DNA from: Eledone cirrhosa
Taxonomy: Eukaryota
Length of the DNA: 64,000 bases
Assembly: GCA_964016885.1 (NCBI GenBank)
Contig: OZ024747.1
Coordinates: 83,824,001 to 83,888,000, forward strand
Reading direction: 5' to 3'
Part shown: positions 3,426-32,882 of the stretch, one piece after another
Layout: each line of letters begins with the position of its first letter
Position numbering within the stretch: the stretch's first letter is position 1
Notes under the pieces: model-generated
What the model was told of the DNA's origin: nothing
The model's database searches: none
What the model saw: only the letters and a program-made list of their open reading frames with translations
Program-made: the position numbers and the translations under genes

Positions 3426-3500
3426 GTTTCCGCTCAACAAAATAGTTTTGTATATATATGAAGCAACCCCAAAGTTTACAAGCTATCCACAGACAGATAA

Positions 3501-4463
3501 CTTTCTTTTTATTTGCCACCAGGGCATCAAAGAGTGGGACAAGTACAATGGGGGGAGTTTACATGAAAAGGTGTCCTCAATAAGGAGGAGGCAATAACAA
3601 AATATAAAAATATAAAAATATAAAATATAACAAAAATAAATTGAATACCAAAATCCTCAATAGGGAGGAGGCGTCTTGGGGGGTTGCACACACCCCTGAA
3701 AAAAGTGTGCAACCCTTCTCCTCAGGAGCACAGAGAGAGGGTGCTCCCATGATCTTTCATCTTTCTCACCTACAGTCTGATGTAGAGTGAAGGCCCATTC
3801 ACACAGGCCATTCTCCCCACTTTCACCCACCTTTCATAGAAACGGCTGGGGTGCAGCACCTCTCTCTCCATCCTGATCCTTCTTCCGAAATGATATCGGA
3901 AGAAACGGACCAGTTGTTGGCCAGAGAGAAAGGTGCCTGACCTCAGTCCTTTCAGACACGTCCACCATACAACCTCTTTCGCCATGGCTATTACGCACAG
4001 AAACACCGCCTCTCCTTCGTTTTTGAAGAGGGGAGGCGGCTTGATCGTTACAATAGACTCGGTGGTCAACCGGATCGGTCCCACCCTTGACAGCAGTTGT
4101 TCGACATAGCCCCACAGATCGGCAATGCCCGAGCAGTGTACTAATGCGTGTGCAACGGTTTTCTCGTCGCACACGCATCTGGGACAGATCTTTTTCGAGG
4201 GGTCCCTACCCGGGCGCCCGTGTCTGTAGAGCCTTTCTCGAACGGGCAGAGCCCCTCGGTAGCACTGCCAGGCCAGGGACCTCTGGAAGTTATCCATGGG
4301 TCCTGGGCTGAATGTCCTACCGAACAGGTTGGCCAGTTCGTCTTCCTCCATGCCTAGGGCTTCTCCGAGGGCGTCGTCGCACCTGCTAACCACCAGCCCT
4401 CTATAGAATGACGAGGTGGATTCTCTACTGACAGCCGGGTCCGCCTGCCAGAGAGCCGTGAGC
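3501..4463 (-). mobile_element. Tx1/L1-clade LINE copy A, 5'-truncated (ORF2 C-terminus 3770-4463 plus 3'UTR)
   Basis: ORF 3770..4393 is clearly homologous to the C-terminus of both full ORF2s (SLAWQCYRGALPVRERLYRHG, CPRC..H..C). The 3'UTR ends AATAAA-AAGAAA. Confidence 0.92.
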
Positions 4464-4482
4464 CAGGCAGATAGATAGATAC

Positions 4483-4691
4483 ATTTCTTTATTAGCTACA
4501 AGGGCACAAAAGAAGGGGACAAAAACAAATGAAGAGTTTACATACAGGTATATGAAAATAAAACTATCAATAAAACAACAAATAACAATTGAAATCCCCA
4601 ATAGGGGGGAGGTGTTACACAGGTGTTGTACACACCCCGAAAAAATGTACAACCCTCATCTCCAGGAGCACCAAGAGTGAGTATTCCCTTC
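4483..4691 (-). mobile_element. Tx1-like copy B (3'UTR only)
   Basis: Matches the 3'UTR of full-length copy E (AGGGCACAAAAGAAGGGGACAAA; CCCCGAAAAAATGT.CAACCCTCATCTCCAGGAG); flanked by GATA tracts. Confidence 0.85.
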
Positions 4692-4727
4692 ATAGATAAA
4701 TATATAGTTAGGCAGGTAGATAGATGT

Positions 4728-5057
4728 ATTTCTTTATTTACCACACGGGCGTACAAAAATGGGACATTACAAGACGTCACGGCGGGTTTTTTTTACATAA
4801 AATCGTTAACTATAATAATGGATAACAATAGAATATATATAAAATAAAACAATTGAAATCCCCAATGGGGGGGGGGGGGGGGCGTTACTGCGGGGTTGTT
4901 TTACACCCCGTGGACAGAACAACCCTCAACACAAGGAACACGTTTTGTAGGTGTTCCCGTCTTCCCTCTGTTTGTCTTCTTCAACCTACAGGTTTATATA
5001 CAGAGAAGGCCCATTCACTCGGGCCATTTTCGCCACATTCATCCACCTTTCAGCGAA
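4728..5057 (-). mobile_element. Tx1-like copy C (3'UTR plus last ~25 codons of ORF2)
   Basis: Encodes ..RWMNVAKMARVNGPSLYINL*; same 3'UTR motifs; GATA flanks. Confidence 0.85.
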
Positions 5058-5074
5058 GATAGATAGATAGATAT

Positions 5075-5426
5075 ATTTCTTTATTTGCCACAAGGACGCA
5101 CTAGAAAAGGGAACAATACAAATACATATGTCGGGGATTTTGCATACAATCGTGTAAAAATATTTTTAAAACAAATAAATTCAAAAATCGAAATCCCCAA
5201 TAGGGGGGGAGGCGTTACAAATGGGTTCTTTAATACCCCGTAGATAGAACAACCCTCAACCCCAGGAGCATGTTGTGCAAGTGCTCCTTTCTTCCTTTTG
5301 CTCTCTTCTTCAACCTACAGGTTTATATACAGAGAAGGCCCAATCACTCGGGCCATTTTTGCTACATTCACCCACCTTTCAGTAAATTTACTGGGGTGCA
5401 GTGCCTCTCTCTCCACTCTGATTCTT
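5075..5426 (-). mobile_element. Tx1-like copy D (3'UTR plus last ~35 codons of ORF2)
   Basis: RIRVEREALHPSKFTERWVNVAKMARVIGPSLYINL*; closely similar to copy G. Confidence 0.88.
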
Positions 5427-5440
5427 AGGTAGGTAGGTAT

Positions 5441-5485
<45 letters not shown>
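5427..5485. repeat. (GGTA)n/(GATA)n microsatellite spacer between elements
   Basis: Direct reading; similar tracts at 4464-4482, 4692-4727, 5058-5074, 11328-11378, 17191-17260 and 17589-17601. Confidence 0.95.
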
Positions 5486-5486
<1 letters not shown>

Positions 5487-5721
5487 TTCTTTATTAGCCA
5501 CAGGGGCACAAAAGAAGGGGACAAATACAAAGGGGGAAGTTTACATACAATAAAAACGTGTAAAATGTTATCACAGATGGAATTTAAAAGTTAGTCGATT
5601 TTCCCCAATAGAGGGAGACAGTTTATATGGGTAACACATACCCCCGAAAAAATGTGCAACCCTCATCTCCAGGAGTACGAAGAGCTTGTACTCCTTTCCT
5701 CTCCTCCTCCTTTTCCTCAAT

Positions 5722-8700
5722 CTACAGGCTGATATAGAGAGAAGGCCCATTCACTCGGGCCATTCTCGCCACTTTCACCCACCTTTCATAAAACTTGCTG
5801 CGGTACAGCACCTCTCTCTCCATCCTGATTCTTCTTCCAAAGTGGTATTTGAAAAAAAGAATCAGTTGTTGGCCGGAGAGAAAGGCGTCTGACCTCAGCC
5901 CTTTCAACCTTGTCCACCATACAACCTCTTTCGCCATAGCTATCACAGAAAGGAAAACCGCCTCTCCTTCGTTTTTGAAGGAGGGTGGCGGTTTGATCAT
6001 GACAATGGACTCGGTGGTCAACTGGATTGGTCCCACCCGCGACAATAGTCGTTCTACATATCCCCACAGGTCAGTGACGCCCGGGCAGTGTATGAATGCG
6101 TGCGCGACGGTTTCTTCGTCTCGCACGCACCTCGGACAGATCTTTTTTGCAGGGTCCCTGCCCGGGCGCCCATGTCTGTAGAGCTTGTCTCGAACTGGTA
6201 GAGCTCCTCGGTAGCACTGCCAGGCCAGGGACTTTTGGAAGTTGTCCATCGGTCCCGGGCGGAAGGTCCTACCGAACAGACTGGCCAGTTCATCTTCCTC
6301 CACGCCTAGAGTTTCACCGAGCGCGTCGTCGCACTTGCTGCGGACCAACCCTCTATAGAATGACGAAGTGGAGTCTCCACTGATCGCCGGGTCCGCCTGC
6401 CAGAGGGCTGTGAGCGCCTGAGCACATTCGATGTGCCAGTCGCCCATTTTCCTCGGTCTCTGCTTGACCCAGGACTGCAGCTCGGTCAGTGAGACGAGTC
6501 GTGGGAAGGCTCGCCTCACGAACGGGGCCCACACCGGTTGTCCGGTGAGGAATACGTAGAGATGCCGCAGCCTGAGCGCGTGTTTGCGCATCGTCAACCA
6601 CGGCATCCCCAGCCCTCCGTTAGAAGGGTGTTGGCAGCAGATGGATCTTCTTACCAAAGGAGCCCGCCTCTTCCAAAGGAATCGGAAGAGGGCGCGCTCC
6701 ATTTTGGCGAGCGTTTTGGCTGGACAAGGCACGACGGTCAAGCGGTAGTAGATGGCGGACGCTATAAAAGTGTTCGCCACCTCCGCTCGACCTTTCAAGG
6801 ATAGTTTGCACTCGGCCCACTTCTGGGTGAGTGCAAACACCTTGGCCGTCACTTCGTTCCAGTTCTTCTCCACCTGGAGGTCCGGACCAAACCAGACCCC
6901 GAGCAGCTTTACCGGTCCTTCCGTCCAGCGTCCGACGACGCCATCGGAAGGCATCGGTCTGCATCTCCACGATCCGAGTTGCAAACCGATGGACTTGTCC
7001 CGGTTCAGCTTCGCTCCTGTGAGACTTTCGTATTCCTTTAGTAAGGTGCCGACTTCCTCGATTTGCGAGGCGCTCGACACCATTACTGTCACGTCGTCGG
7101 CGTAGGCCGACGCCGCTTTCCGCAGTCCCGGTTCCAGAGGGATGCCCTGCAATAGCTCCAGCTTCCGCAGTAGTGGCTCGAGAGTCAGTACGTACAGAAG
7201 GGAGGAGAGAGGGAATCCCTGTCGAATGGATCGCGTAATATGGAACGGCTCCGAGAGGTAACCGTTCACCTTGACCCTTGAGCAGATGTTGCTGTTGTGC
7301 ATTGCAGCAATCCAGCCCCTGAACACGGGTCCGAAGCCTGCCGCCTCGAGCACCGCATCCAGGTAACGATGGTCAACCCTATCGAAAGCCTTAGACTGAT
7401 CCAAGTTGATCAGGGCCCCACCGAAGCCGGGTTTACACCCTACCCTCTCTATGATGTATCGCATGAGGTGGAGGTTGTCGTGTATGGACCTGGTCGGGAT
7501 CGCGCATGTCTGCGCTTCTCCCACCAGGTTCTCGACGACAAGCGCCAGCCTCTTTGCCAACACCTTGGCCAAAATCTGTAACTCTGTGTTTAGCAGAGTT
7601 ATGGGCCGGAAGTTGCTTATGTCATCCCCCTTATTCTCGTCCTTCCTGATTAGTGTGACCACGCCCCCGGTTACAGAACTGGGAATTCTCCCGTTCTGTT
7701 GCCAGTTGCAGTAGACCGCTTCCAGGAGACCGGAGAATAAGTCCGGCATTGCTACGTAAAATTCGTAGGGTAGACCGTCGAGACCTGGAGATTTGCGTTT
7801 GCCGCATTGGCTCAGCGCGTCCCCTATCTCAGTGGCTGAAATCGGCTTTTCGCAGAACTTCGCCTCGCTGTCCGAGAGTCGCGGTAGGCCGTCGAGGTAT
7901 GGACCGAAATCCATAGCCTCTCCCGGCGCGCCGCTCCCCCCGAACAGCCGAGCAAAGTGCCGCTGAAAAGCCGCACACATCTGCTTCGGCTCACGTATCA
8001 CGCGTCCGTTTTGGTCCTTCAAAGACCGAATCGTGGACTTGTTGCCACTTTTTGCCTCCGTCACTCGGGCCCAGCTAACAGCTTTGGCTCCCTCGTTTCC
8101 CAGAGCACGTATTTTGCTTCTGACAACGCAGCCCTCGTGCTTTGCGTCGAAGAACTGGTCCAAGGCCGTTCTCGTTGCTAGCACGCTGGCTACGTTGCCA
8201 CTTCTAATAGCCTCTTCTACTTTATCTACCAGTTCCTTCTCGGTTCTATTTCTATCTAACGCTAATTCTTTACTAAAAACTATCGAGTCTAATCTAACTG
8301 CCCTCTTGAGAGAGTACCACCATCTGTTGTTGACAATGGCCCCTGTCAAGTGCTGTTTAACTAAAGTGCTAATCCGTCTACTGTAGGCTTTGCTTGTCGG
8401 TAACGACAAGTTCAGCTTCCAGTAGCCGGGTCCTTGTCTATGGGTTCTATCAAGGTTGGCCATGCAGGTCACTAGTTTGTGATCCGAATAGGCAACCATG
8501 AACATTTGTGGACAGCTTAACATGTCCCTATCCTTATTTCTAACTAGAACCCTATCTAGGTACGATCTAGATGTTCCGCTACGATTACTCCACGTCCACA
8601 GTGGCGCAGTCGGAAAATCTAGTCGATATCTATCGGCCAGGTCAAATCGGTCGATTAACTGTTTGAGGCTGTTACACCCCCCTTTATCGGGACATGCTCC

Positions 8701-9159
8701 CACATAGTCCCAACGTGCATCTAGGATTCCATTCCAGTCCCCCACTAAAAGCAAGGAGCGGGACGTTCCCAGAAAAGTCTCTAGACGTTTGAAGAAGTCT
8801 GGCCGCGGTGTCCCGGATGGGGCATATGCGGCCACCAGCCTGAACGCTCCACCTTCACTACCGTCAACGTCTAGGACCACCAGTCGACCCTCCGGGTCCA
8901 GATCTACCGTCTGTGTTACGAGGCCCAGGTGTTTCCGCAGCAAAACGGCAACTCCGCCCCCACCCCCCGGTTGACAGAGAGATGCGTAGATCTCAAAGTC
9001 ATCGAAGATGGGGGCCAGCTGTCGCTCGCCGTGGATCCTGGACTCGCAAATGGCTACCACATCCAAACTGTGCGACCTGAGGTCGTTTAAGAGTTTGCCC
9101 TGTTTCCAGGGCATCCCCAGGCCGCGTACGTTCACACATCCAACTCTTATATTGGCCAT
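5722..9159 (-). CDS. ORF2p: APE endonuclease + reverse transcriptase + C-terminal CCHC finger (1145 aa)
   Basis: APE motifs NVRGL, CESR, GDWN, YLDR, SDH; RT motifs KSPGLDG, FRPITLLN, LDQSKAFDRVDH, RQGxPLS, YADD, KLLG; finger CPRC-x8-H-x4-C. Confidence 0.96.
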   Translation of the reverse strand: MANIRVGCVNVRGLGMPWKQGKLLNDLRSHSLDVVAICESRIHGERQLAPIFDDFEIYASLCQPGGGGGVAVLLRKHLGLVTQTVDLDPEGRLVVLDVDGSEGGAFRLVAAYAPSGTPRPDFFKRLETFLGTSRSLLLVGDWNGILDARWDYVGACPDKGGCNSLKQLIDRFDLADRYRLDFPTAPLWTWSNRSGTSRSYLDRVLVRNKDRDMLSCPQMFMVAYSDHKLVTCMANLDRTHRQGPGYWKLNLSLPTSKAYSRRISTLVKQHLTGAIVNNRWWYSLKRAVRLDSIVFSKELALDRNRTEKELVDKVEEAIRSGNVASVLATRTALDQFFDAKHEGCVVRSKIRALGNEGAKAVSWARVTEAKSGNKSTIRSLKDQNGRVIREPKQMCAAFQRHFARLFGGSGAPGEAMDFGPYLDGLPRLSDSEAKFCEKPISATEIGDALSQCGKRKSPGLDGLPYEFYVAMPDLFSGLLEAVYCNWQQNGRIPSSVTGGVVTLIRKDENKGDDISNFRPITLLNTELQILAKVLAKRLALVVENLVGEAQTCAIPTRSIHDNLHLMRYIIERVGCKPGFGGALINLDQSKAFDRVDHRYLDAVLEAAGFGPVFRGWIAAMHNSNICSRVKVNGYLSEPFHITRSIRQGFPLSSLLYVLTLEPLLRKLELLQGIPLEPGLRKAASAYADDVTVMVSSASQIEEVGTLLKEYESLTGAKLNRDKSIGLQLGSWRCRPMPSDGVVGRWTEGPVKLLGVWFGPDLQVEKNWNEVTAKVFALTQKWAECKLSLKGRAEVANTFIASAIYYRLTVVPCPAKTLAKMERALFRFLWKRRAPLVRRSICCQHPSNGGLGMPWLTMRKHALRLRHLYVFLTGQPVWAPFVRRAFPRLVSLTELQSWVKQRPRKMGDWHIECAQALTALWQADPAISGDSTSSFYRGLVRSKCDDALGETLGVEEDELASLFGRTFRPGPMDNFQKSLAWQCYRGALPVRDKLYRHGRPGRDPAKKICPRCVRDEETVAHAFIHCPGVTDLWGYVERLLSRVGPIQLTTESIVMIKPPPSFKNEGEAVFLSVIAMAKEVVWWTRLKGLRSDAFLSGQQLILFFKYHFGRRIRMEREVLYRSKFYERWVKVARMARVNGPSLYISL

Positions 9160-9192
9160 GTTGGTGCTGAAAAGTTAAAAGAGGAAAAGAGA

Positions 9193-11109
9193 TCACTCAC
9201 CCTTCGCCTCCTGGGGACCAGGCCGCACGATTTCCATGGGGGTGTTGGAGGGGTTGTCTGGATGGGTGGTGGTTTCCGGCGGGGTGGGGACGCAGATGTT
9301 TGGTGGGGTGGGGTCTGGTGGGATGGGGGTGTCTGGGGTGGGGAGGCATTTGAGAAGGACGCGGTTGAGTGGTTTCACGCAGGAATTCCCCACATCCTTC
9401 TCAAATGTTTCTTTTAGGGACCTATAAGTTTGTATAGGGACCCTAATCAGTTTTAGGTTCATTTTTTGTTATTTTTTATAGAGTGGGCGAAAGTTTTCCC
9501 TTCGGTGAAAGCCGAAGGGTCGTTCGTAATGGTCTCCATTAGTGTTTTGTTTTCAGTGTTTATGTAAGTGTAAGTGTAATTTTCTTGTGTTGTGTTTGTT
9601 TTTGTCTGTAGTTCTTGTGTGTGCTTTCGTTTTGTTGTAGGTATTTTGTTTTCATGAGGTGGGGGTTTTGTTTGTGATATTTTTGTTGTTTGTGTTGGTG
9701 GTTGTATGTTTGTGGTAGTGTTTGCTGGTTTTTTGCTTTTGTGATGTCTTTTCTTTCTTTTCGAGCGATGGGGTTCTCCCTCGTCTTCACTGGGTGATGG
9801 CGAGATAGCCTCATCTGTTGTATCGTCTGTGTGATTGGGGAGGGGTATGTCTTGGGGAGCTGTTGTGTCTGTATGTGATTTTGCAGTGGTTTTAGGTGGA
9901 GTGAGGTTGGGTGGGACTGTGTTTGTTGTGGTTATTTTTGTGTGTTGGTGTTGTTGTTGTAGTGGTGGTGTTGGTGGTTGTGTTGTTTTGATGGGTGTTG
10001 GCAGAAGAGCCTTTTTTTGGTTCATTAGTTTAGGACAGGAAGCCCTCAGGTGACCCCTGCTAAAGCAATGGTAACATGAAGGCCGCCTACCCTCAACCGA
10101 AAGGTTTATGTAGGTAAGTCCGTCCAGGAGTACACGCTGTGGGATCATAGCTATTCGCTCTGGGCTCATTTGCACCAGAACTTCAATGCTAGTCCCATTG
10201 AATACATCTCTGGGGGACTTGCCTACTGACAGTATTCTGTCTTCATCAAAATTGATGAAGCCGCACAGTATCCACCATATGTTCACCTTTGGTGTGACAC
10301 TTGTGATTCTGATCTTTTGTGTCCTTTTTCCCATGTATGTAGGGAAAAAGGTGTACAGGTTGGATACAATTGGCGACACAGAGTAATTTTGGGCCGTCAA
10401 TTGATCCTTCATCAGTACCGAAATACTCCCAAAAAGTTTGCTTCTTTGAATGAATGCAATATCATTCATTGAATCTTTGAAAACCAGTTCAATATCTTTC
10501 TGTGACAATTGGACTGGTTTTCGGGTAGAATTGGAAACTGTCCTAAAAACTATCGTTTTGAGAGCAGTTTCCTTGCGAATTTCTACCGGAGAATTGATGC
10601 TGAAAGCACCATTTTTTTTCGAAGGTGACATATCTCTTAGCGTCCTTTAAAAGGTGTTCAGCATTTGTTATGTCGAGATATATCAATTGTTCTTTCTTTT
10701 GAACTTTCTCCGCAAAGGAGATTTTTGGTTTCTTTGTGGAATCCGTATTGGTGGTGTTGTCATTATTGTTGTTATTCTTGTTTTTATTCTTGTTGTCACC
10801 GATGTTGGTATCATCCGTATTTTCCTTGGTGTTGTTGTTGTCTTTGATGCTGGTGTTATTGGCGTTGTCTTTATTTTTTTCTTTGTTGTTGTTATCATTG
10901 TTGCTTTTATCATCATTATTGGTTTTGCTGTTATTTTTGTTGTCATTGAGCTGTTTGGTGTCATTTGTGTTGTTTGGATGTGAATTCGTTTTTTTATTTT
11001 CATTTTGTCTTTCCATCTCTATAGTATCTAGTGAAGAAGACGTTGTTGACTGCGAGCTTTGTAGTCTTACCGCCTCTCCACCACCATTATCGTTGGACGC
11101 AGCGTTCAT
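9193..11109 (-). CDS. ORF1p (gag-like nucleic-acid-binding protein, ~638 aa reconstructed) with two frameshifts at A-homopolymers (~10612-10619, ~9462-9467)
   Basis: Three track ORFs (10543..11109, 9459..10631, 9193..9462) join colinearly with ORF1 of copy F; KISFA motif; zinc knuckle CYHCFSRGHLRASC. Confidence 0.8.
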
Positions 11110-11334
11110 AACGTAATCAAAATTTTACAATATTTTTTTCCAAGATTCGATGGAGAAAAATTTTTTAAATGGATATTCCGCCCCTGTAGGGGCGAAAATG
11201 AGTTGACCCACCACCTGAAGGTCCAGACGGGTGGTCAAGTTACACAATGATATAAAATTGAACTAAAAACTCACGTTTTTTCCTTACATAAATTAACGGA
11301 AACTTCTCCGCGAAGTGACACACGTCTGATAGAG

Positions 11335-11378
<44 letters not shown>

Positions 11379-11588
11379 TTATTTACCATAAAGGCATAAA
11401 AAGAAGGGACAAATACAAAGGGGGAGTTTACATATAATCGAGTAAAAAGGGTGTAACATGAAAATAATCGAAAATAACCTCAAAAGGGAGGGGACGTGAT
11501 GGGGGTTGCACACACCCCCGAAAAAGTGTGCAATCCTTTGCCCGGGGAGCACATGGAGAAGGTGCTCCCCTCTCCTTTACTTCTTTAC

Positions 11589-14500
11589 CTACAGGATGGT
11601 ATACAGAGAAGGCCCATTTACACGAGCCATTCTCGCCACTATCACCCACCTTTCATAAAACTGCCTGTGGCCAAGCACCTCTCTCTCCATTCTTATCCTT
11701 CTTCCGAAGTGATATCGGAAGAAGTAGACCAGACTATGGCCAGAGAGGAAGTTGCCTGACCTCAGACCTTTCAATCGCGTCCACCAAACAACCTCTTTCA
11801 ACATGGCTATTACGCACAGAAAAACCGCCTTTGCTTCCTTTGTGAAGAGGGGAGGCGGTTTGATTGTCATCACGGACTCGGCGGTCAATTTAATCGGCGC
11901 CACCCGCGACAGCAGTTGTTCGGCGTAGCCCCACAGATCAGCCACGCCCGGACATTGCACCAATGCGTGCGCTACGGTTTCTTCGTGACGCACGCATCTA
12001 GGGCAAATCTTTTTTGAGGGATCCCTGCCCGGGCGCCCGTGTCTGTAGAGCCTCTCTCGAACGGGTAGAGCCCCTCGGTAGCACTGCCAGGCCAGTGACT
12101 TCTGGAAGTTGTCCATTGGTCCTGGGCCGAAAGTCCTACCGAATAGGCTGGCCAGTTCGTCTTCTTCCATGTCCAGCGACTCTCCAAGGGTGTCATCGCC
12201 CCTGCTAGCCACCAGCCCTCTATAGAATGATGAGGTGGATTCTCCACCGATGGCCTGGCCCGCTTGCCAGAGAGCCCTGAGCGCCTGAGCACACTCAGTG
12301 TGCCAGTCTCCCAGTTTTCCGGATCTTTGCTTGACCCAGGACTGTAGCTCGGTGAGTGAGACGAGTCTCGGAAAGGCTCGTTTCACGAACGGAGCCCACA
12401 CCGGTTGACCAGTGAGGAATACCTGTAGGTGCCGTAGCCTTAATGCGTGCCTACGCATCATCAACCACGGCATCCCCAGCCCTCCTTTCGAAGGTTGTTG
12501 GCAGCAGATGGATCTTCTCACCATAGGAGGACGCTTCTTCCAAAGAAATTGGAAGAGCATGCGTTCCATGGTGGTGAGTGTTTCCTTAGGGCAAGGCACG
12601 ACAGTCAGGCGGTAGTAAGTGACGGACGCTATGTAAATGTTCGCCACCTCCGCCCGGCCTTTTAGGGACAGCTTACACTTGGCCCATTTCTGGGTTAGTG
12701 CAAACACCTTGTTCGTAACCTCGTTCCAGTTCTTTTCCACCTGGAGGTCCGGTCCAAACCAGACCCCAAGCAACTTTACCGGGCCCTCCGTCCAGTGTCC
12801 GACGACACCGTCAGGAGGCATCGGTTTGCCTCTCCACGTTCCGAGTTGCAGCCCGATGGATTTTTCCCGGTTCAGTTTCGCTCCTGACAACCTTTCGTAC
12901 TCCTCCAGTAAGGTACCGATCGCCTCGATCTCCGAGTCGGTTGATACCATTACTGTTACGTCATCGGCGTAGGCCGACACCGCTTTGCTCAATCCTGGTT
13001 CCAGGGGGATACCCTGCAACAACTCCAACTTCCTCAGTAAAGGCTCGAGAGTCAATACGTACAGAAGGGAGGAGAGAGGGCACCCCTGTCGAATGGATCG
13101 TGTGATTTCGAACGGCTTCGAAAGGTAGCCGTTCACCTTGATCCTAGAACAGATGTGGTTGCTATGTAGGGCAGTGATCCAGCCTCTGAAAACAGGACCG
13201 AACCCAGCCGCCGCTAGCACCGCATCCAGGTAACCATGGTCGATCCTATCGAAGGCCTTAGACTGATCCAAGTTGATCAGGGCCCCACCGAAGCCGGGTT
13301 TGTTGCCAACCCTCTCTATGATGTATCGCATGAGGTGGAGGTTATCGTGAATGGACCTGGATGGGATAGCACATGTCTGCGCATCTCCCACCAGGCCACC
13401 CACGACAAGCGCCAACCTCTTTGCTAACACCTTGGCCAAAATCTTTAACTCTGTGTTTAGCAGGGTTATGGGCCGAAAATTATTTATACTATCCCCCTTG
13501 TTCTCGTCCTTCCTCACCAGCGTGACTACGCCCTTGGCTACAGAACAAGGAATTCTCCCGTTCTGCTGCCAATTGCAGTAGACCGCTTCGAGGAGTTCGG
13601 AGAAGAAGACCGGCATTGCTAAATAAAGTTCGTAAGGTATACCATCGAGACCTGGAGATTTGCGTCTGCTGCATTGGCTCAGCGCATCTCCGATCTCATC
13701 AGCCGAGATTGGTCCCTCGCAGGACTCTGCCTCTTTGCTCGAGAGACGCGGCAGGCCGTCGAGGTATGGACCGAAATCCACGCCCCGGCCCGGACCCTCG
13801 CCTCCCCCGAACAATCGGGCAAAGTGCTTTTGAAAGGCCTCGCACATCTGCTTAGGCTCCCGGATCACTCGTCCATCTTCGTCTTGCAACGACCGGATGG
13901 TGGATCGATTTCCACTCTTAGCTTCTGTCACGCGGGCCCATCCAACGGCTTTGGCCCCCTCATTACCTAGAGCACGTATTTTACTTCGAATGACGCAGCC
14001 TTCATGCTTTGCATCGAAAAACTGGTTCAAGGCCGTCCTCGATGCCAGCACTCTGGCCACATCTTCGCTCTTGATTGCCTCTTCTAATTTACCTGCTAAT
14101 TCTTTCTCGTTTCTATTCCTATCGGCAGCTAACATCTTGCTATAACTTATTGATTCTGTTCTAATCTCTCTTTTGAGAGATGCCCACCATCGGTTGTTGA
14201 CGATTGCACCCGTCAACCTCTCCTTAACTAATCTGCTAATCCGGTTTCTGTAAGTCTCTTTTGCCGGTAAAGACAAATTAAGTTTCCAGTAACCGGGACC
14301 CTGTCTATGTGTTTTCTCGAGATTGACCACGCAGGTCACTAATTTGTGATCCGTGTAGCCAACCGTGCGCATTTCTGGACAGCTTAATATGTCCCTATCC
14401 TTACTTCTAACTAAGAATCTATCTAAGTACGATCTAGATTGACCACTGTGGTTTCTCCAAGTCCAGGTAGGCACAGTTGGAAAATCTAGTCGATATCTAT

Positions 14501-15026
14501 CGACCAAGTTAAAACGGTCGAGTAACCCCTTGAGGCTGTTACACCCCCCTCTATTAGGACATGCTCCTGCATAGTCCCAACGTGCATCCAGGATGCCATT
14601 CCAATCCCCCGCTAGAAGCAGGGAACGCGACGTTCCCAGAAAAGTCTCCAAACGCTGGAAGAAGTCGGGCCGTTCAGCTCCGAAAGGGGAGTAGACGGCG
14701 ACCAGTCTCAAAGCCGCACTTTCACTACTGCCAACGTCTAGCACCAACAAACGACCCTCCGGGTCCGAGTGCACAACCTGTACGGCAAGACCCAGGTGTT
14801 TTTGCAGCAGTACGACAACCCCACCCCCACCTCCAGGTTGACAGAGAGATGCATGCACCTCAAAGTCATCGAAGGTGGGGGCCAGCTGCCGCATGACGCT
14901 GATTCGAGTCTCACAGATAACCATTACATTTATACTACATGACCTGAGGTCATTTAGAAGCTTTGCTTGCTTCCAAGTTGAGCCCAGGCCACGTGCATTC
15001 AAACATCCTACTCTTAACACATCCAT
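11589..15026 (-). CDS. ORF2p: APE endonuclease + reverse transcriptase + CCHC (1145 aa)
   Basis: NARGL, CETR, GDWN, YLDR, TDH; KSPGLDG, LDQSKAFDRIDH, RQGCPLS, YADD; CPRCVRHEETVAHALVQC. Same length as copy E ORF2. Confidence 0.96.
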   Translation of the reverse strand: MDVLRVGCLNARGLGSTWKQAKLLNDLRSCSINVMVICETRISVMRQLAPTFDDFEVHASLCQPGGGGGVVVLLQKHLGLAVQVVHSDPEGRLLVLDVGSSESAALRLVAVYSPFGAERPDFFQRLETFLGTSRSLLLAGDWNGILDARWDYAGACPNRGGCNSLKGLLDRFNLVDRYRLDFPTVPTWTWRNHSGQSRSYLDRFLVRSKDRDILSCPEMRTVGYTDHKLVTCVVNLEKTHRQGPGYWKLNLSLPAKETYRNRISRLVKERLTGAIVNNRWWASLKREIRTESISYSKMLAADRNRNEKELAGKLEEAIKSEDVARVLASRTALNQFFDAKHEGCVIRSKIRALGNEGAKAVGWARVTEAKSGNRSTIRSLQDEDGRVIREPKQMCEAFQKHFARLFGGGEGPGRGVDFGPYLDGLPRLSSKEAESCEGPISADEIGDALSQCSRRKSPGLDGIPYELYLAMPVFFSELLEAVYCNWQQNGRIPCSVAKGVVTLVRKDENKGDSINNFRPITLLNTELKILAKVLAKRLALVVGGLVGDAQTCAIPSRSIHDNLHLMRYIIERVGNKPGFGGALINLDQSKAFDRIDHGYLDAVLAAAGFGPVFRGWITALHSNHICSRIKVNGYLSKPFEITRSIRQGCPLSSLLYVLTLEPLLRKLELLQGIPLEPGLSKAVSAYADDVTVMVSTDSEIEAIGTLLEEYERLSGAKLNREKSIGLQLGTWRGKPMPPDGVVGHWTEGPVKLLGVWFGPDLQVEKNWNEVTNKVFALTQKWAKCKLSLKGRAEVANIYIASVTYYRLTVVPCPKETLTTMERMLFQFLWKKRPPMVRRSICCQQPSKGGLGMPWLMMRRHALRLRHLQVFLTGQPVWAPFVKRAFPRLVSLTELQSWVKQRSGKLGDWHTECAQALRALWQAGQAIGGESTSSFYRGLVASRGDDTLGESLDMEEDELASLFGRTFGPGPMDNFQKSLAWQCYRGALPVRERLYRHGRPGRDPSKKICPRCVRHEETVAHALVQCPGVADLWGYAEQLLSRVAPIKLTAESVMTIKPPPLFTKEAKAVFLCVIAMLKEVVWWTRLKGLRSGNFLSGHSLVYFFRYHFGRRIRMEREVLGHRQFYERWVIVARMARVNGPSLYTIL

Positions 15027-15059
15027 GTGGGCGGCAGAGCCAAAGGAGAGTGTAGAGAC

Positions 15060-16956
15060 CTACCTTTCCGCTTCCCGGGGTTCGGGTTGCACGACTTCCA
15101 TGGGGTCGGGGGTGTTGGGTGAAGGGGTGTCTTGTGGTGGTGTGGGGTCGTCAGTGTGTGGTGGGGTTGGGGTGTTTGGAGTTGTGTTGGGGAGGGGAAG
15201 GGGAGGGGGAAAGCTTTTTAGTAGGACGCGGTTTATGGGTTTGACAGAGGGTGGTCCTACGTCCTCCTTAAAATCCTTTTTTTAGTTTTTGGTAGAGGTT
15301 CATTGGGATCTTTATTAGTTTTAAATGTGGGTGGTTTTCTGACGAAACAAAGTTTACACCTTCGGTTTGTACCGAAGGATTATTGTATATGAGTTCATTT
15401 AATTTATTATTGTTTCTGTTGATGTAAGTATAGTGTAATGTCTTTTTTTCCGATGGTGTGAGTGTTTCGAAGAGGGGAGGGGCAGGTTTGGTTTTGTTTG
15501 TTGCTGGAGGGGTGTTTTCTGTTTTGTTGGATTGTGTTGCGATTTGGGTGGGGGTTGTTTGTCCTGTGTGTTTTGCACATGTTTTCTTTTTTTCCTTTTA
15601 ATCTGTCTGAAGGACTCCGTTTCTTCCTCCGAATTCGTTGGGTTATCTTCAGTGTTGGAGGGAAGAGGTATGTTTGCTGGTAATGTTTCCGTGTTGGTTT
15701 TCTTTGTGGGGGAGATGGATGTCACTATGTTAGACTGTGTTGTGTCTGCGGTGGTTGTGTTGTTTTATTGAGTGAGAAGTTGGGTGGGCCTGTATTTTGT
15801 TTTGGGGTAATGTGTTGTGACTGCTTGTGTTGTGGTGGTGTTGTGGTTTTACTGAGGGACGGGTTGGGTGGGACTGAGTTTTGTTGTTTGTTTATCTGTT
15901 GTGGTGGTGGTGGTGGAGCTGGTGTTGGTAGCAGGGTTTTCTTTTTGTTGAGTTGGGGACAAGCGGCCTTCAGGTGCCCTCTGCCTGCACAGATATGGCA
16001 GGACGGCCTTCTCCCCTCCACGCTAATGTTTATATACCCGTGGTCCTCTAATAGGATTCTGTCGGGTATTTGGGCGATGCGTTCAGGCTTCATTTGTACT
16101 ACCAGCTCTATACCTGTTCCACTGAACGCATTGCCTGTGGTTTTCCCAATGGAAATCACGTTGTCATTCACTGGATCGATGAAGCCAGCTATGAGCCAGC
16201 AGTAGTCCACATCTGGCATCATTGCATCCAGCCATATGCGTTGAGTTTTTTTCCCCATATAAGATGGATAAAAGGTGAAATTTTTCGAACGAATCGGTGA
16301 CAAAGCACATTTTTTTGCCGCCGATTCGTTCTTCATGATAATTGCTAGGCTTCCATACAGTCTGTCTTTTCTTATGAAAGTTGTTTCATTCAGTACTTCT
16401 GTGAGTACTGTTTTGATATCTGCTTGAGAAGGCTGTTCAGGTTTTTTTGTACTGTTGTTGATGGTCCGAAACTTGACCGTTCGGCTTTCAATGTCTTTCG
16501 TGAATTCTTGAGGCATTTTTACCAATAAAATACCATTCTCACCTTCACTTATGTATTGTTTGGCGTCCGTGATCCTTCGTACCACATCTGAAATGTTTTC
16601 CGCTATATAAGTCAAAGATTTCTTTGTTTTCTGTGCAAATGAAATCTTGTCGTCTGCTTTGTTTTCTGATATGGTGTTATTTTCAACTGTTATTTTTTTG
16701 TTTGTTGTGTCTTTGTTTGTGTTATTAGTATTGTCATGCAATTTTTCAAATTTTTTTTTTTTTCGTTGTTGGAATCCAAGTCCAGATTTATGTTTTCGTC
16801 ATTTAATTTTTTCTCCGCAGATTCGTCCGTTTTTATTTTCATTTTTCCTTCCTTCTCTATGACGTTAGTTGGGAAGGAAGGGAGGACTAAAGCGTGCGAG
16901 CTTACAACTCTTACCGCTGTCCCCCCACCACTATTTTCGTTCGCTGCGTTTAACAT
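15060..16956 (-). CDS. ORF1p of copy F with about four frameshifts, mostly at A-runs
   Basis: N-terminus MLNAANENSGGGTAVR resembles MNAASNDNGGGEAVR of copy E; KISFA; zinc knuckle CHICAGRGHLKAAC; C-terminus VKPINRVLLK..PMEVVQPEPREAER* matches copy E. Confidence 0.78.
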
Positions 16957-17190
16957 TTCTGTTAGACGATTGAAATTTTTTACACAAAATTTTTTAAAAC
17001 AGGTTTTTCACCTCTAGGAGGGGTAAAGATGAGCTGACCCACCGCCTGACAGTTCAGACGGAGGGTCAAGCTACACAATTGTATCAAAATTAAGTTTGAA
17101 CTCACAAAATTTCCTCAATAAATTTGAACAAAACTTCTGTGCGAAGTGAATGACATCCACACTGTAGAACAGACGACAGCTAGATTGTCT

Positions 17191-17234
<44 letters not shown>

Positions 17235-17259
17235 GTAGGTAGGTAGGTAGATAGATAGA

Positions 17260-17588
17260 TTTCTTTATTAGCCACAAGGGCGCAACAAGAAAAGGGGACA
17301 ATACAAAGACATGCCGGGGATTTTACATACAGTCGTGTAAAAAATATAAAAACCAACAATTTCAACAATCGAAATCCCCAATAGGGGGGGAGGCGCCACA
17401 AATGGGTTGTTTAATACCCCGTCGATAGAACAACCCTCAACTCCAGGAGCTTGTTGTGCAAGTGCTCCTTTCTTCCTTTTGCTCTCTTCCTCAACCTACA
17501 GGCTTATAAACAGAGAAGGCCCAATCACTCGGGCCATTTTCGCTTCATTCACCCACCTTTCAGTAAATTTACTGGGGTGCAGCACCTC
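17260..17588 (-). mobile_element. Tx1-like copy G (3'UTR plus ORF2 tail)
   Basis: EVLHPSKFTERWVNEAKMARVIGPSLFISL*; close to copy D; 5' junction in GATAGATAG. Confidence 0.88.
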
Positions 17589-18383
17589 ATAGATAGATAG
17601 ACGGGACCACGTACTACACAAGACTGGGCTGGTTACACACAATAATTGAAAACTAACTTGTATTCTGTCATAGAAGTATTTAGTGACCCGCTTGACCAGT
17701 TAATAGATTAAAAGATACAGGGCATTGAACTATACTTTAAGCCTGCGTTATCTACTACAGAGTCCATACCCACCCTCGCCAAATCATTTGACAGGTTCAT
17801 AACACCTTACCATTTTCTCAACCGCCTTGGATATTTTCATAACCCTGCTACACGGTAATGATGTTTAATGATTTATTTATTGATCGCAGGAAATTCTTAT
17901 ATACTTAATTTAATTATAGAAATTTGTATCAAACTGATCCCTTATGATTGAGTAATGCGCCTCTCTGAGGTGTGTGCCCTAGAGAGTTGCCTTGTTCGCC
18001 TCAATGGCAGCATCTGTCCGGTATATAGTGTATATAAATGTGTGGCTACGAACTATGTAAAACTGGGCTCACTATAGATAATAACTGTGGCTACGTACTG
18101 GGCTGGCTATAGATAATGGCTGTTAACTCACAGATGTTACGTGATGTTACGTGGGGGAAGTGATGGAAGTGATGGAAGCACTCAGTTACCCGCTCAGTCA
18201 ATCAATTAAACGATTAGAAAATGCGAAACGTATGCTGGCTTCTTATGCTTTAAATTATATAATTCTTTCAACCATTTCACTATTTCATTAACGGGAAACT
18301 GTGAATAGTCCCTCATGTCTCCTTCCTTCTCATAGTGAAACAGAACCGAGGAGAGAGAAAGAGAGAGAGAGACGGAGAGGAGC

Positions 18384-19749: not shown

Positions 19750-20228
19750 TCGGCGCTACTATTAAGGCCAATAACACAGCTCTGTATGGCGCAGACCTCA
19801 ACAGAGACATATATTCTTAAAGGTTCGCAGACGCTATCATTAAGACCAATAAGGCAGATCTCTATGGCGCAGACCTCAACAGAGACACATATATTCTTAA
19901 AGGTTCGCAGACGCTACTATTAAGTCCAATAACACAGGTCTCTATGGCGCAGACCTCAACAGAGACACATATATTCTTAAAGGTTCGCAGACGCTATCAT
20001 TAAGACCAATAAGGCAGCTCTCTATGGCGCAGACCTCAACAGAGACACATATATTCTTAAAGGTTCACAGACGCTACTATTAAGTCCAATAAGGCAGCTC
20101 TCTATGGCACAGACCTCAACAGAGACACATATATTCTTAAAGGTTCACAGATACTATCATTAAGACCAATAACACAGGTCTCTATGGCGCAGACCTCAAC
20201 AGAGACACATACATTCTTAAAGGTTCAT
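19750..20228. repeat. 80-bp tandem repeat x6 with alternating A/B units
   Basis: TCTATGGC(G/A)CAGACCTCAACAGAGACAC recurs at 19861, 19941, 20021, 20101 and 20181; CTACTATT and CTATCATT alternate. Confidence 0.92.
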
Positions 20229-21114
20229 AGTTTTATATAATGTATATAATTAACTTATATATATTAATAATTTTCTATGATCAATGAATAAATCGCTAAA
20301 CATCATTGCTTTTTAGCAGCATTGTGAAAATATCGAACGTGGTAGAGAGGGTCATATGGTGTTATGACATGTACATTGATTTGGTGTGGGGGAGTGTGGA
20401 CTGTATAGTCGAAAATGCAGGTTTAATAATTTTCTTAGTACAGTCAGAGCAAGAAGTATTGAATACTAGGTTTGTCAGCTTGCGAAACTGTACGTTGAAT
20501 GTTTTTATTTGGAAGAAGAAGGCGCATAAAAGGAGAAGGGGGTGTGTGCATATTTTAGGGATAACCAAGGGTGCTAAATTCCACGGCCACGGCCCAGTTG
20601 ATACCAGATATTCACTGTCTATCGATGTTGAAAAGATAATAAAATATAGGTATTACTATAATAGATATGTATGCTATAGATAATAGTTAGTAACTTGGCA
20701 GGTTATACCATCTCTCTCTCTCTCTTGGTGGATGTTATGTAATTTGCCACAGCTTATAGTTGCCGAGTAGATACGAACAACTTACAAGAGCTGCCTGAAC
20801 AAACACAACCTGTAGTTGATAACTGATTAGATATATGTAGATATCTATCATGTAGAAAAGAAACACTTTAGTAGGGATCGGGCTGCTGATTATTATAATC
20901 ATTATTAGTTTTTTTATTATCATCATTTAGTCGGAAGAATTGAGAGGTGGTGCCCATGAACTTTGTGGGAAACCTTTAAACTAACGAAATCGATAAGGAT
21001 GATGTCCTGTTTAAACTGTAGGTTGTTTATGAGATAGATAAAAAGAAGGAAAAATACAGACAGGAAGGGAATTACAGACAGCTAGAATTATGAACGAAAT
21101 ATTTACTGTATAGA

Positions 21115-27903: not shown

Positions 27904-27957
27904 TATATATCCCTTCACCTACTCTCTCTCTCCCTCACTCTCTCGCCCTCTCTCTAA

Positions 27958-30900
27958 CCATACAGCTCCCCCACTCTCTCCACCATACAGCTCCCTCACT
28001 CTCTCCACCATACAGCCCCCCCACTCTCTCCACCATACAGCTCCCCCACTCTCGCCACCATACAGCCCCCCCACTCTCTCCACCATACAGCTCCCCCACT
28101 CTCGCCACCATACAGCTCCCCCACTCTCGCCTATACAGCCCCCCCACTCTCTCCACCATACAGCCCCCCCACTCTCTCCACCATACAGCCCCCCCACTCT
28201 CTCCACCATACAGCTCCCCCACTCTCGCCACCATACAGCTCCCCCACTCTCTCCACCATACAGCTCCCCCACTCTCGCCACCATACAGCCCCCCCACTCT
28301 CTCCACCATACAGCCCCCCCACTCTCTCCACCATACAGCCCCCCCACTCTCTCCACCATACAGCCCCCCCACTCTCTCCACCATACAGCCCCCCCACTCT
28401 CTCCACCATACAGCCCCCCCCACTCTCTCCACCATACAGCTCCCCACTCTCGCCACCATACAGCTCCCCCACTCTCGCCACCATACAGCTCCCCCACTCT
28501 CGCCACCATACAGCTCCCCCTCTCTCTCCACTATACAGCTCCTCCACTCTCGCCTATACAGCTCCCCCACTCTCGCCACCATACAGCTCCCCCACTCTCG
28601 CCACCATACAGCTCCCCCTCTCTCTCCACCATACAGCTCCTCCACTCTCGCCTATACAGCTCCCCCACTCTCTCCACCATACAGCTCCCCCACTCTCGCC
28701 ACCATACAGCTGCCTCTCTCTCTCCACCATACAGCTCCCTCACTCTCGCCACCATACAGCTCCCCCACTCTCGCCACCATACAGCTCCCCCACTCTCGCC
28801 ACCATACAGCTCCCCCTCTCTCTCCACCATACAGCTCCTCCACTCTCGCCTATACAGCTCCCCCACTCTCTCCACCATACAGCTCCCCCTCTCTCTCCAC
28901 CATACAGCTCCCTCACTCTCTACACCATACAGCCCCCCCACTCTCTCCACCATACAGCCCTCCCACTCTCTCCACCATACAGCTCCCCCTCTCTCTCCAC
29001 CATACAGCTCCTCCACTCTCGCCTATACAGCTCCCCCACTCTCGCCACCATACAGCTCCCCCTCTCTCTCCACCATACAGCTCCCCCACTCTCTCCACCA
29101 TACAGCTCCCCCTCTCTCTCCACCATACAGCTCCCCCTCTCTCTCCAGCATACAGCTCCCCCACTCTCTCCACCATACAGCTCCCCCACTCTCGCCACCA
29201 TACAGCTCCCCCTCTCTCTCCACCATACAGCTCCCCCACTCTCGCCACCATACAGCTCCCCCTCTCTCTCCACCATACAGCTCCCCCACTCTCTCCACCA
29301 TACAGCTCCCCCTCTCTCTCCACCATACAGCTCCCCCTCTCTCTCCAGCATACAGCTCCCCCACTCTCTCCACCATACAGCTCCCCCACTCTTGCCACCA
29401 TACAGCTCCCCCTCTCTCTCCACCATACAGCTCCCCCACTCTCGCCACCATACAGCTCCCCCTCTCTCTCCACCATACAGCTCCCCCACTCTCGCCACCA
29501 TACAGCTCCCCCTCTCTCTCCACCATACAGCTCCCCCACTCTCTCCACCATACAGCTCCCCCTCTCTCTCCACCATACAGCTCCCCCTCTCTCTCCAGCA
29601 TACAGCTCCCCCACTCTCTCCACCATACAGCTCCCCCACTCTCGCCACCATACAGCTCCCCCACTCTCTCCACCATACAGCTCCCCCTCTCTCGCCACCA
29701 TACAGCTCCCCCACTCTCTCCACCATACAGCTCCCCCACTCTCTCCACCATACAGCTCCCCCACTCTCGCCACCATACAGCTCCCCCTCTCTCTCCACCA
29801 TACAGCTCCCCCACTCTCGCCTATACAGCTCCCCCACTCTCGCCACCATACAGCTCCCCCACTCTCTCCACCATACAGCTCCCCCACTCTCGCCTATACA
29901 GCTCCCCCACTCTCGCCTATACAGCTCCCCCACTCTCGCCTATACAGCTCCCCCACTCTCGCCACCATACAGCTCCCCCACTCTCGCCACCATACAGCTC
30001 CCCCACTCTCTCCACCATACAGCTCCCCCACTCTCTCCACCATACAGCTCCCCCACTCTCGCCACCATACAGCTCCCCCACTCTCGCCACCATACAGCTC
30101 CCCCACTCTCGCCACCATACAGCTCCCCCACTCTCTCCACCATACAGCTCCCCCACTCTCGCCACCATACAGCTCCCCCACTCTCGCCACCATACAGCTC
30201 CCCCACTCTCTCCACCATACAGCTCCCCCACTCTCTCCACCATACAGCTCCCCCACTCTCTCCACCATACAGCTCCCCCACTCTCGCCACCATACAGCTC
30301 CCCCACTCTCGCCACCATACAGCTCCCCCACTCTCTCCACCATACAGCTCCCCCACTCTCGCCACCATACAGCTCCCCCTCTCTCGCCACCATACAGCTC
30401 CCCCTCTCTCGCCACCATACAGCTCCCCCTCTCTCTCCACCATACAGCTCCCCCACTCTCGCCACCATACAGCTCCCCCACTCTCGCCACCATACAGCTC
30501 CCCCACTCTCGCCACCATACAGCTCCCCCTCTCTCTCCACCATACAGCTCCCCCACTCTCGCCACCATACAGCTCCCCCACTCTCTCCACCATACAGCTC
30601 CCCCACTCTCGCCACCATACAGCTCCCCCTCTCTCTCCACCATACAGCTCCCCCACTCTCGCCACCATACAGCTCCCCCACTCTCGCCTATACAGCTCCC
30701 CCTCTCTCTCCACCATACAGCTCCTCCTCTCTCGCCACCATACAGCTCCCCCCCACTCTCTCCACCATACAACTCCCCCTCTCTCTCCACCATACAGCTC
30801 CCCCACTTTCTCCACCATACAGCTCCCCCACTCTCGCCACCATACAGCTCCCCCACTTTCTCCACCATACAGCTCCCCCACTCTCGCCACCATACAGCTC

Positions 30901-32882
30901 CCCCACTCTCTCCACCATACAGCTCCCCCACTCTCGCCACCATACAGCTCCCCCACTCTCGCCACCATACAGCTCCCCCACTCTCTCCACCATACAGCTC
31001 CCCCACTCTCGCCACCATACAGCTCCCCCACTCTCGCCACCATACAGCTCCCCCACTCTCTCCACCATACAGCTCCCCCACTCTCTCCACCATACAGCTC
31101 CCCCACTCTCTCCACCATACAGCTCCCCCACTCTCGCCACCATACAGCTCCCCCACTCTCGCCACCATACAGCTCCCCCACTCTCTCCACCATACAGCTC
31201 CCCCACTCTCGCCACCATACAGCTCCCCCTCTCTCGCCACCATACAGCTCCCCCTCTCTCGCCACCATACAGCTCCCCCTCTCTCTCCACCATACAGCTC
31301 CCCCACTCTCGCCACCATACAGCTCCCCCACTCTCGCCACCATACAGCTCCCCCACTCTCGCCACCATACAGCTCCCCCTCTCTCTCCACCATACAGCTC
31401 CCCCACTCTCGCCACCATACAGCTCCCCCACTCTCTCCACCATACAGCTCCCCCACTCTCGCCACCATACAGCTCCCCCTCTCTCTCCACCATACAGCTC
31501 CCCCACTCTCGCCACCATACAGCTCCCCCACTCTCGCCTATACAGCTCCCCCTCTCTCTCCACCATACAGCTCCTCCTCTCTCGCCACCATACAGCTCCC
31601 CCCCACTCTCTCCACCATACAACTCCCCCTCTCTCTCCACCATACAGCTCCCCCACTTTCTCCACCATACAGCTCCCCCACTCTCGCCACCATACAGCTC
31701 CCCCACTTTCTCCACCATACAGCTCCCCCACTCTCGCCACCATACAGCTCCCCCACTCTCTCCACCATACAGCTCCCCCACTCTCGCCACCATACAGCTC
31801 CCCCACTCTCGCCACCATACAGCTCCCCCCACTCTCTCCACCATACAGCTCCCCCACTCTCTCCACCATACAGCTCCCCCACTTTCTCCACCATACAGCT
31901 CCCCCACTCTCTCCACCATACAGCTCCCCCACTCTCGCCACCATACAGCTCCCCCACTCTCTCCACCATACAGCTCCCCCCCACTCTCTCCACCATACAG
32001 CTCCCCCACTCTCTCCACCATACAGCTCCCCCACTCTCTCCACCATACAGCTCCCCCACTCTCTCCACCATACAGCTCCCCCACTTTCTCCACCATACAG
32101 CTCCCCCACTCTCTCCACCATACAGCTCCCCCACTCTCGCCACTATACAGCTCCCCCACTCTCTCCACCATACAGCTCCCCCACTCTCTCCACCATACAG
32201 CTCCCCCACTCTCTCCACCATACAGCTCCCCCTCTCTCTCCACCATACAGCTCCCCCCCCACTCTCTCCACCATACAGCTCCCCCACTCTCTCCACCATA
32301 CAGCTCCCCCACTCTCTCCACCATACAGCTCCCCCACTCTCTCCACCATACAGCTCCCCCTCTCTCTCCACCATACAGCTCCCCCACTCTCTCCACCATA
32401 CAGCTCCCCCACTCTCTCCACCATACAGCTCCCCCTCTCTCTCCACCATACAGCTCCCCCCCCACTCTCTCCACCATACAGCTCCCCCACTCTCTCCACC
32501 ATACAGCTCCCCCACTCTCTCCACCATACAGCTCCCCCACTCTCTCCACCATACAGCTCCCCCCCCACTCTCTCCACCATACAGCTCCCCCACTCTCTCC
32601 ACCATACAGCTCCCCCACTCTCTCCACCATACAGCTCCCCCTCTCTCTCCACCATACAGCTCCCCCCCCACTCTCTCCACCATACAGCTCCCCCACTCTC
32701 TCCACCATACAGCTCCCCCACTCTCGCCACCATACAGCTCCCCCACTCTCTCCACCATACAGCTCCCCCTCTCTCTCCACCATACAGCTCCCCCACTCTC
32801 TCCACCATACAGCTCCCCCACTCTCTCCACCATACAGCTCCCCCTCTCTCTCCACCATACAGCTCCCCCTCTCTCTCCACCA
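27958..32882. repeat. 25-bp minisatellite CCATACAGCTCCCCCACTCTC(T/G)CCA, ~4.9 kb, ~200 units
   Basis: Two units per 50 bases; 22-bp deletion variants; internal 850-bp block duplication. Confidence 0.97.

Follow-up and report, generated by a model that had tools for sequence, protein, structure and literature searches.

Several families of long interspersed nuclear elements (LINEs) in the Tx1 clade have microsatellites as their targets, namely (TC)n for Kibi, (TTC)n for Koshi, and (TTCC)n or (TTTC)n for crocodilian Tx1 elements (PMC4494074). The Tx1-like LINE considered here, present as an array of seven copies in a 64,000-nucleotide stretch of the Eledone cirrhosa genome (contig OZ024747.1, positions 83,824,001 to 83,888,000, hereafter the window), very probably lands in GATA repeats, whether through its endonuclease or through an RNA tail. 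In this it would resemble the teleost Kibi and Koshi as well as Tx1-1_Crp, Tx1-5_Crp, Tx1-6_Crp, Tx1-1_Gav, and Tx1-2/3/5/8_AMi, all of which have an apurinic/apyrimidinic endonuclease (APE) and prefer microsatellites (PMC4494074). Going by the published descriptions, it is set apart from them by its (TCTA)n/(GATA)n target, its octopod mollusc host, and the presence of several lineages at one site. All array junctions are of the TCTA type rather than the (TC)n or (TTC)n type, and no copy of the element was found by blastn or tblastn in the TC/GA tracts of the window. A Tx1 family has been considered target-specific when more than 20% of its genome-wide flanks carry one sequence type (PMC4494074); in the window all seven array copies, which are not independent loci, have such flanks, and a decayed relative (H, described below) does not.

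Other systems resemble the array in part. In crocodilians, Tx1-Mar and SINEU-3 likewise show sequential tandem insertions that sandwich a target-site duplication (TSD), but there it is short interspersed nuclear elements (SINEs) that are stacked, with a DNA transposon (Mariner-N4_AMi) as their target (PMC4494074). The Tx1L element of Xenopus has a sequence-specific APE whose nick has AGTT on its downstream side, a motif similar to the AGAT proposed here (PMC1950540). Its target, on the other hand, is unique sequence in the Tx1D transposon and not a simple repeat. The SaTar Mutator-like element (MULE) arrays of guayule and rice are also non-nested, of mixed families, and built by microsatellite targeting, but they consist of non-autonomous DNA transposons, and the main text describing them does not mention GATA (PMC5907723). 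Togen, which targets (TG)n, and Hero are microsatellite-specific non-LTR (long terminal repeat) elements as well, although with a restriction-like endonuclease instead of an APE and with other targets (PMC4640811). Human LINE-1 differs in its poly(A) tail and its loose TTTT/AA target. Within cephalopods, 13 recently active L1-Tx1 families are reported from Octopus vulgaris, in a main text from which the word “target” is absent (PMC13282606), and an L1-Tx1 expansion is described in coleoids, with no target mentioned in the available part of that account (PMC8967140). No GATA-targeting LINE was found in the open literature, a search that left outside it Repbase, subscription papers (among them Kojima and Fujiwara, 2004), and the supplement of PMC4494074, where one may be recorded. 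The GATA target is probably new and the mechanism already known; the gain is therefore a new specificity and not a new system.

The array occupies positions 3502-17588. A first-pass annotation had described seven copies (A to G) on the minus strand, head-to-tail and with none nested in another, and the coordinates confirm this. Two of the seven (E and F) are full length and the other five (A, B, C, D, and G) are 5'-truncated, with 5' borders that are accurate to approximately 3 nt:

3502..4463, minus strand: copy A, 962 bp, 5'-truncated
4484..4691, minus strand: copy B, 208 bp, 3' untranslated region (UTR) alone by alignment
4729..5054, minus strand: copy C, 326 bp, 5'-truncated
5076..5426, minus strand: copy D, 351 bp, 5'-truncated, of one subfamily with G (90%)
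5486..11327, minus strand: copy E, 5842 bp, full length
11378..17190, minus strand: copy F, 5813 bp, full length
17260..17588, minus strand: copy G, 329 bp, 5'-truncated

Copy A holds the last 230 codons of open reading frame (ORF) 2, which are open and 84% identical to residues 916-1145 of E ORF2 (tblastn). All seven copies terminate in AATAAA(+GAAA) and, as had been noted, pass from there into TCTA-type sequence without a poly(A), the flank of A being degenerate (GTTA TCTG TCTG). A single orientation for all seven has a probability of 0.016 if orientation is random. The common orientation, the absence of nesting, and the single tract at each junction would also be accounted for if there were no targeting, the repeats being tails and the array the product of a reverse transcriptase (RT) that jumped between RNAs to form a single concatemer or several. 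Such an origin, which is also in line with the failure of the coding parts of A, E, and F to separate by age, is improbable in view of the spacers and flanks:

3489..3501, minus strand: outer downstream flank GTTATCTGTCTGT, next to the 3' end of A
4464..4483, minus strand: spacer TGTA TCTA TCTA TCTG CCTG, after the 3' end of B
4692..4728, minus strand: spacer of 9 degenerate in-register TCTA units, after the 3' end of C
5055..5075, minus strand: spacer TATA (TCTA)3 TCTT C, after the 3' end of D
5427..5485, minus strand: spacer (TCTA)11 TATA CCTA CCTA CCT, after the 3' end of E
11328..11377, minus strand: spacer (TCTA)10 TCTC TCTA TC, after the 3' end of F
17191..17259, minus strand: spacer (TCTA)3 (CCTA)4 (TCTA)10 T, after the 3' end of G
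17589..17601, minus strand: outer upstream flank TCTATCTATCTAT, 13 perfect repeat bases at the 5' junction of G

Any internal spacer may be the tail of the upstream copy, and the informative features are therefore the outer junction of G, the orientation, the variants shared across copies, and the decay of the spacers. There is no 3' end of an element upstream of the outer junction, so that TCTATCTATCTAT is derived from the target; its first 12 nt are identical to the 12 nt after the 3' end of G, which thus has the repeat on both sides with a duplication of 12/12. The repeats are consequently not merely tails, and a concatemer leaves these 13 perfect bases unexplained. By eye, GTTATCTGTCTGT can be matched to GTCTATCTATCTAT, the outer upstream flank, if a single gap and two A>G substitutions are allowed, and it is possibly a decayed copy of the first TSD. 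The outer flanks suggest that the original site had only about 3 units (13 bp), in which case the long tracts probably grew within the array rather than forming one pre-existing long microsatellite. The earlier placement of the copies in one (GATA)n microsatellite thus holds for the in-register repeats in which they lie and not for the size of the original site.

The internal spacers measure 20-69 nt, and all six start the TCTA register directly after the last A of the element and hold it to their last base. Hence the 3' register is constant and the 5' phase variable, with spacer lengths modulo 4 of 0, 1, 1, 3, 2, and 1. When the 12-nt junction flanks were compared with (TCTA)n, using 99,714 12-mers as background, 11 of the 14 flanks matched at 10 or more positions, against 99 background 12-mers at that level and none at 12. 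From A to G, the matches out of 12 are 9, 10, 12, 9, 10, 12, and 12 on the 5' side and 9, 11, 10, 11, 12, 12, and 12 on the 3' side; every 5' junction, including the outermost at 17589, had been said to abut GATA repeats, and the 5' values of 9-12 agree with this. The sequence GATAGATAGATA has 37 matches with at most one mismatch, every one on the plus strand within the array, whereas shuffled sequence averages 0.73 and never exceeds 4. Runs of at least 9 bp in GATA register number eight in the array, with a 9-mer outside it (21032, plus strand) and another within F ORF2 on the opposite strand. The claim that long GATA tracts are confined to the array is borne out, the 9-mer at 21032 being all that the window contains outside it.

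Two-sided flank identity with shared variants amounts to 16/20 for B, 15/19 for C, and 12/15 for D, a TSD within a repeat being inherently ambiguous. At 4 of 10 downstream variant sites, two of them belonging to B and one each to C and D, a non-repeat variant recurs on the other side of the copy; for example, a CTGCCT variant within the first 20 nt of the spacer at 4692..4728 is common to the spacer at 4464-4483. This is expected from the duplication of target DNA and not from a copied tail, and a concatemer does not explain it either. The associated p-value of 0.002-0.07 depends on the assumed rate, with pairings that were chosen post hoc.

In their 3' 200 nt the copies are 69-90% identical to one another, with D and G the closest pair. 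The nonsynonymous and synonymous divergences (dN/dS) are 0.119/0.739 for E and F, 0.084/0.566 for A and E, and 0.104/0.495 for A and F, giving ratios of approximately 0.15-0.21. These values indicate that the copies stem from separate active lineages under purifying selection, and for that reason the array is not a tandem duplication. The diverged subfamilies and the absence of tandem duplication had both been proposed from the first reading, and the mainly synonymous differences among A, E, and F uphold them. Homopolymer frameshifts in ORF1 that could be read errors, and a window rich in satellites, lend something to the idea of a duplication or an assembly artefact, which is scarcely credible given that the 5' breakpoints differ among copies that are 69-90% identical, and that at least half of the sampled words of E (5487-9200) are found in 5 sequencing runs from 3 studies, one of them possibly the source sample. 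No RNA run is listed as sharing these words, and 15 runs that share fewer than half of them are left out of account. A concatemer, for its part, would require that five or more lineages, 69-82% identical, were expressed together.

The spacers also differ in their decay. Departures from the pure repeat occupy 15 of 78 positions among A-D and 9 of 178 around E and F (Fisher p = 0.0008), a difference between old and young spacers that is unexplained under concatemer formation and that suggests different ages. Since the A-D spacers are more decayed and the D/G pair brackets E and F, the latter two may have arrived later.

A mechanism that we consider likely combines a GATA-strand-nicking endonuclease, target-primed reverse transcription, and target duplication into the stacking of copies. 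The ORF2 protein (ORF2p) would bind its RNA at hairpins in the 3'UTR and nick the GATA strand at 5'-AGAT/AGAT-3' or a single base away. This would free a 3' T to pair with the last A of the GAAA-ending RNA (a 1-nt overlap in E, F, and G) and prime reverse transcription. Cutting of the second strand at a variable position some 12-20 bp away would duplicate the repeat and leave repeats on both sides, and the target duplicated at each insertion would give the following copy a place to land. In this way an original site of some 3 units could grow into the array through repeated insertion over a long period, together with slippage of the purer tracts.

Alternatively, a read-through TCTA tail on the RNA could pair with GATA DNA at a loosely specific nick, so that the RNA picks the site. 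The pure TCTA runs after E (10-11 units), F (10), and G (3) with their fixed 3' register, the lack of poly(A) on the copies, and an ATT run at the end of H, as a family-specific tail would give, are all compatible with such tail guidance, and a co-transcribed target that raises specificity has been discussed for R2 (PMC4494074). Tail guidance is nonetheless unlikely. An AATAAA-like signal stands at every 3' end, and the first unit after the 3' ends of A-D (TGTA after B, TACA after C, TATA after D, and GTTA beside A) is the most degenerate, with 6/16 mismatches vs. 2/32 in units 2-3 (p = 0.012), which inherited target DNA fits better than a freshly copied tail. The first-pass annotation had proposed strand-specific (TCTA)n targeting with renewal of the landing pad at each insertion. 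The outer 5' junction, the register, the shared variants, and the independence of the lineages fit that proposal; it remains drawn from a single locus, and endonuclease specificity and RNA-tail pairing are not separable by sequence.

Several observations weigh against endonuclease-driven targeting of GATA. It is drawn from one locus, with no copies from other loci. The 5' flanks of A and D and the 3' flank of A match (TCTA)n at 9/12, a level found in 4.7% of background 12-mers. The longer duplication around B requires a 17-nt filler, and its shorter reading has no shared variant. Neither CpG decay (5/22, 6/24, and 5/22 in A, E, and F) nor private amino-acid changes (6, 5, and 9, respectively) reveals a difference in age. 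ORF1 is frameshifted in both full-length copies, so that the activity of either is putative only. Lastly, the 3' end of H is followed by TCATTATTAT, an ATT run, and not by TCTA:

44221-44820, plus strand: relative H, a decayed member of a related LINE lineage with the same 3' terminus as the array copies

H shares 33-55% amino-acid identity with the array lineage and 62-67% nucleotide identity at the 3' end. With its ATT flank, the wider lineage is not uniformly bound to GATA: the repeat used may differ from one sister family to the next, as it does between Kibi and Koshi, or else each family may carry a repeat of its own as a tail. A short SINE-like repeat, presumably an octopus SINE, follows H (44831-44905), occurs at 14 other places in the window (e.g., 25447, 26447, 34107, 36121, and 40159), and sometimes adjoins ATT runs.

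According to its coding regions, the element belongs to the L1 group (L1/Tx1). It has two ORFs, truncated copies with a common 3' end, and no LTRs, and its ORF2 combines an N-terminal APE, an RT, and a C-terminal zinc motif and is nearer L1 than R2. The ORFs of the full-length copies are as follows:

5722..9159, minus strand: E ORF2, 1145 aa, open, with APE endonuclease, RT (YADD), and zf-RVT
11589..15026, minus strand: F ORF2, 1145 aa, open, 79% identical to E ORF2, catalytic motifs present
9193..11109, minus strand: E ORF1 in three frame pieces, with breaks near A-runs at ~10619 and ~9467
15060..16956, minus strand: F ORF1 in several frame pieces, with approximately four breaks, mainly at A-runs

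Pfam assigns PF03372 (1e-12), PF00078 (5e-26), and PF13966 (4e-6) to E ORF2, in which a phenylalanine replaces the conserved C of QGCPLS. The endonuclease motifs NxRG, E39, Y112, GDWN, YLDR, and DH are all found in both E and F. The best match in the PDB is human L1 ORF2p, over APE and RT (residues 4-856, E-value 8e-50; 172 bits across endonuclease and RT), whereas R2 reaches at most 82 bits over the RT alone. The closest proteins are an NCBI sequence (70%), an Argonauta hians protein (62%), which is the nearest with a name, and then a cluster near 40%; these matches point to an octopod host. In a midpoint-rooted FastTree phylogeny of 64 RTs, which contains no named Tx1 references and omits 19 near-redundant rows of the 40% cluster as well as low-coverage proteins, E and F group with P0001 and the 40% cluster (support 1.0), on the side of P0042 (0.95) and away from plant L1-type proteins. 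P0042 is a fish protein with ZCCHC3-type RNA-binding domains. Because the tree sets the element apart from the plant L1-type proteins and beside this fish protein, membership in the Tx1 clade is likely, on indirect evidence. Of 17 pattern matches that E ORF2 gave in a metagenome scan, none was a relative; a scan with the alignment gave 54 distant loci (best segments 22-52% identical), none with three or more GATA units. No relatives were found in viral contigs or in prokaryote genomes.

The ORF1 of Tx1-clade elements carries RNA-binding domains and a CCHC knuckle, unlike the coiled-coil type of L1, and human LINE-1 ORF1 lacks the knuckle. In E, ORF1 has a central RNA-binding-like region and one CCHC knuckle, and the knuckle is also present in F, although neither ORF1 has a Pfam match above the cut-off. 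Relatives of ORF1 (527-623 aa) are continuous, and two of them (527-603 aa) match the C-terminal piece of E by their own C-termini (E-value 0.006-0.009). The frame breaks are therefore mutations or read errors and not a sign of a third gene; the idea of an additional ORF between ORF1 and ORF2 was dropped on this ground, and E is not broken at the same points as F. Among 26 relatives scanned, five exceed the zf-CCHC cut-off and one has a weak RBD_ZCCHC3_2nd match (E-value 0.04). Atlas neighbors of ORF1 (0.90-0.92, a lead only) bear zf-CCHC, and in one cluster RBD_ZCCHC3 is present on 82-84% of members. ORF1 has no similarity to the N-terminus of P0042, and a word-indexed search with it retained 0 of 313 candidates.

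A donor-like site crosses the ORF1 stop on the minus strand at 9200 in E (GTGAGT) and 15063 in F (GTAGGT), with no conserved acceptor partner supported. All six copies that reach the ORF2 stop end it in CTGTAG, which prompted the idea of a spliced ORF1-only mRNA with its donor at the end of ORF1 and its acceptor at the ORF2 stop. Conservation at four-fold sites does not support it: in the last 31 codons 8/13 of these are identical, vs. 62% overall.

The untranslated regions contain further conserved features:

5600..5690, minus strand: 3'UTR stem-loops (E coordinates), present in all seven copies (RNAalifold)
11184..11274, minus strand: E 5'UTR intron-like segment, 91 nt, GTGAGT to a pyrimidine tract and CAG, with a hairpin inside
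17014..17105, minus strand: F 5'UTR intron-like segment, 92 nt, at the place homologous to that in E

For the 3'UTR of the seven copies, RNAalifold predicts 24 pairs, seven of them with compensatory changes, and the hairpins may serve RNA recognition. Rfam returned five matches up to an E-value of 1, all under the gathering score, and thus no ribozyme or known RNA. In both full-length 5'UTRs, GTGAGT and a pyrimidine-rich YAG flank a conserved hairpin, with position and length kept. By a crude consensus score, the two donors rank second (tied) of 273 and eighth (tied) of 297 GT sites, and the two acceptors fourth (tied) of 369 and first of 376 AG sites. Spliced 5'UTRs reportedly occur in human L1 (PMC5860796). 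Both full copies start with TCACTTCGC (11310-11318 and 17140-17150, minus strand), which we take to resemble an initiator-type start motif and which suggests an internal promoter. The 5' end of F (17150-17190, minus strand) includes about 40 bases beyond the start of E that are absent from E and unmatched elsewhere in the window.

Taken as a whole, an undescribed octopod Tx1-like lineage with a strand-specific (GATA)n endonuclease, a target kept across at least five subfamilies, tracts grown from 3-unit seeds, an (ATT)n sister family, and perhaps a spliceable 5'UTR intron retained in full-length copies is a tentative composite, which we hold to be somewhat short of an even chance. If true, GATA would become one of the few simple repeats known as targets of APE-type LINEs, microsatellite-targeting Tx1-like elements would extend to molluscs, and there would be a concrete way for GATA tracts to be seeded and lengthened by retrotransposition. 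The two open ORF2s (79% identity) and the ATT-flanked sister family would form a natural series for target change in an APE, which has so far been approached through loop grafting in L1 (PMC1950540).

Elsewhere in the window, a 285-bp inverted pair (17737-18017 and 20147-20426, 73% identical) lies immediately to the right of the array and is probably another repeat family. Minisatellites at 49158-61789 (29-bp x 443) and 27948-32882 (25-bp x 198) yield very long stop-free frames, which on this evidence are not genes. At the end of the window (63737-64000) there are approximately 44 degenerate CCTAAC (TTAGGG-type) telomeric units.

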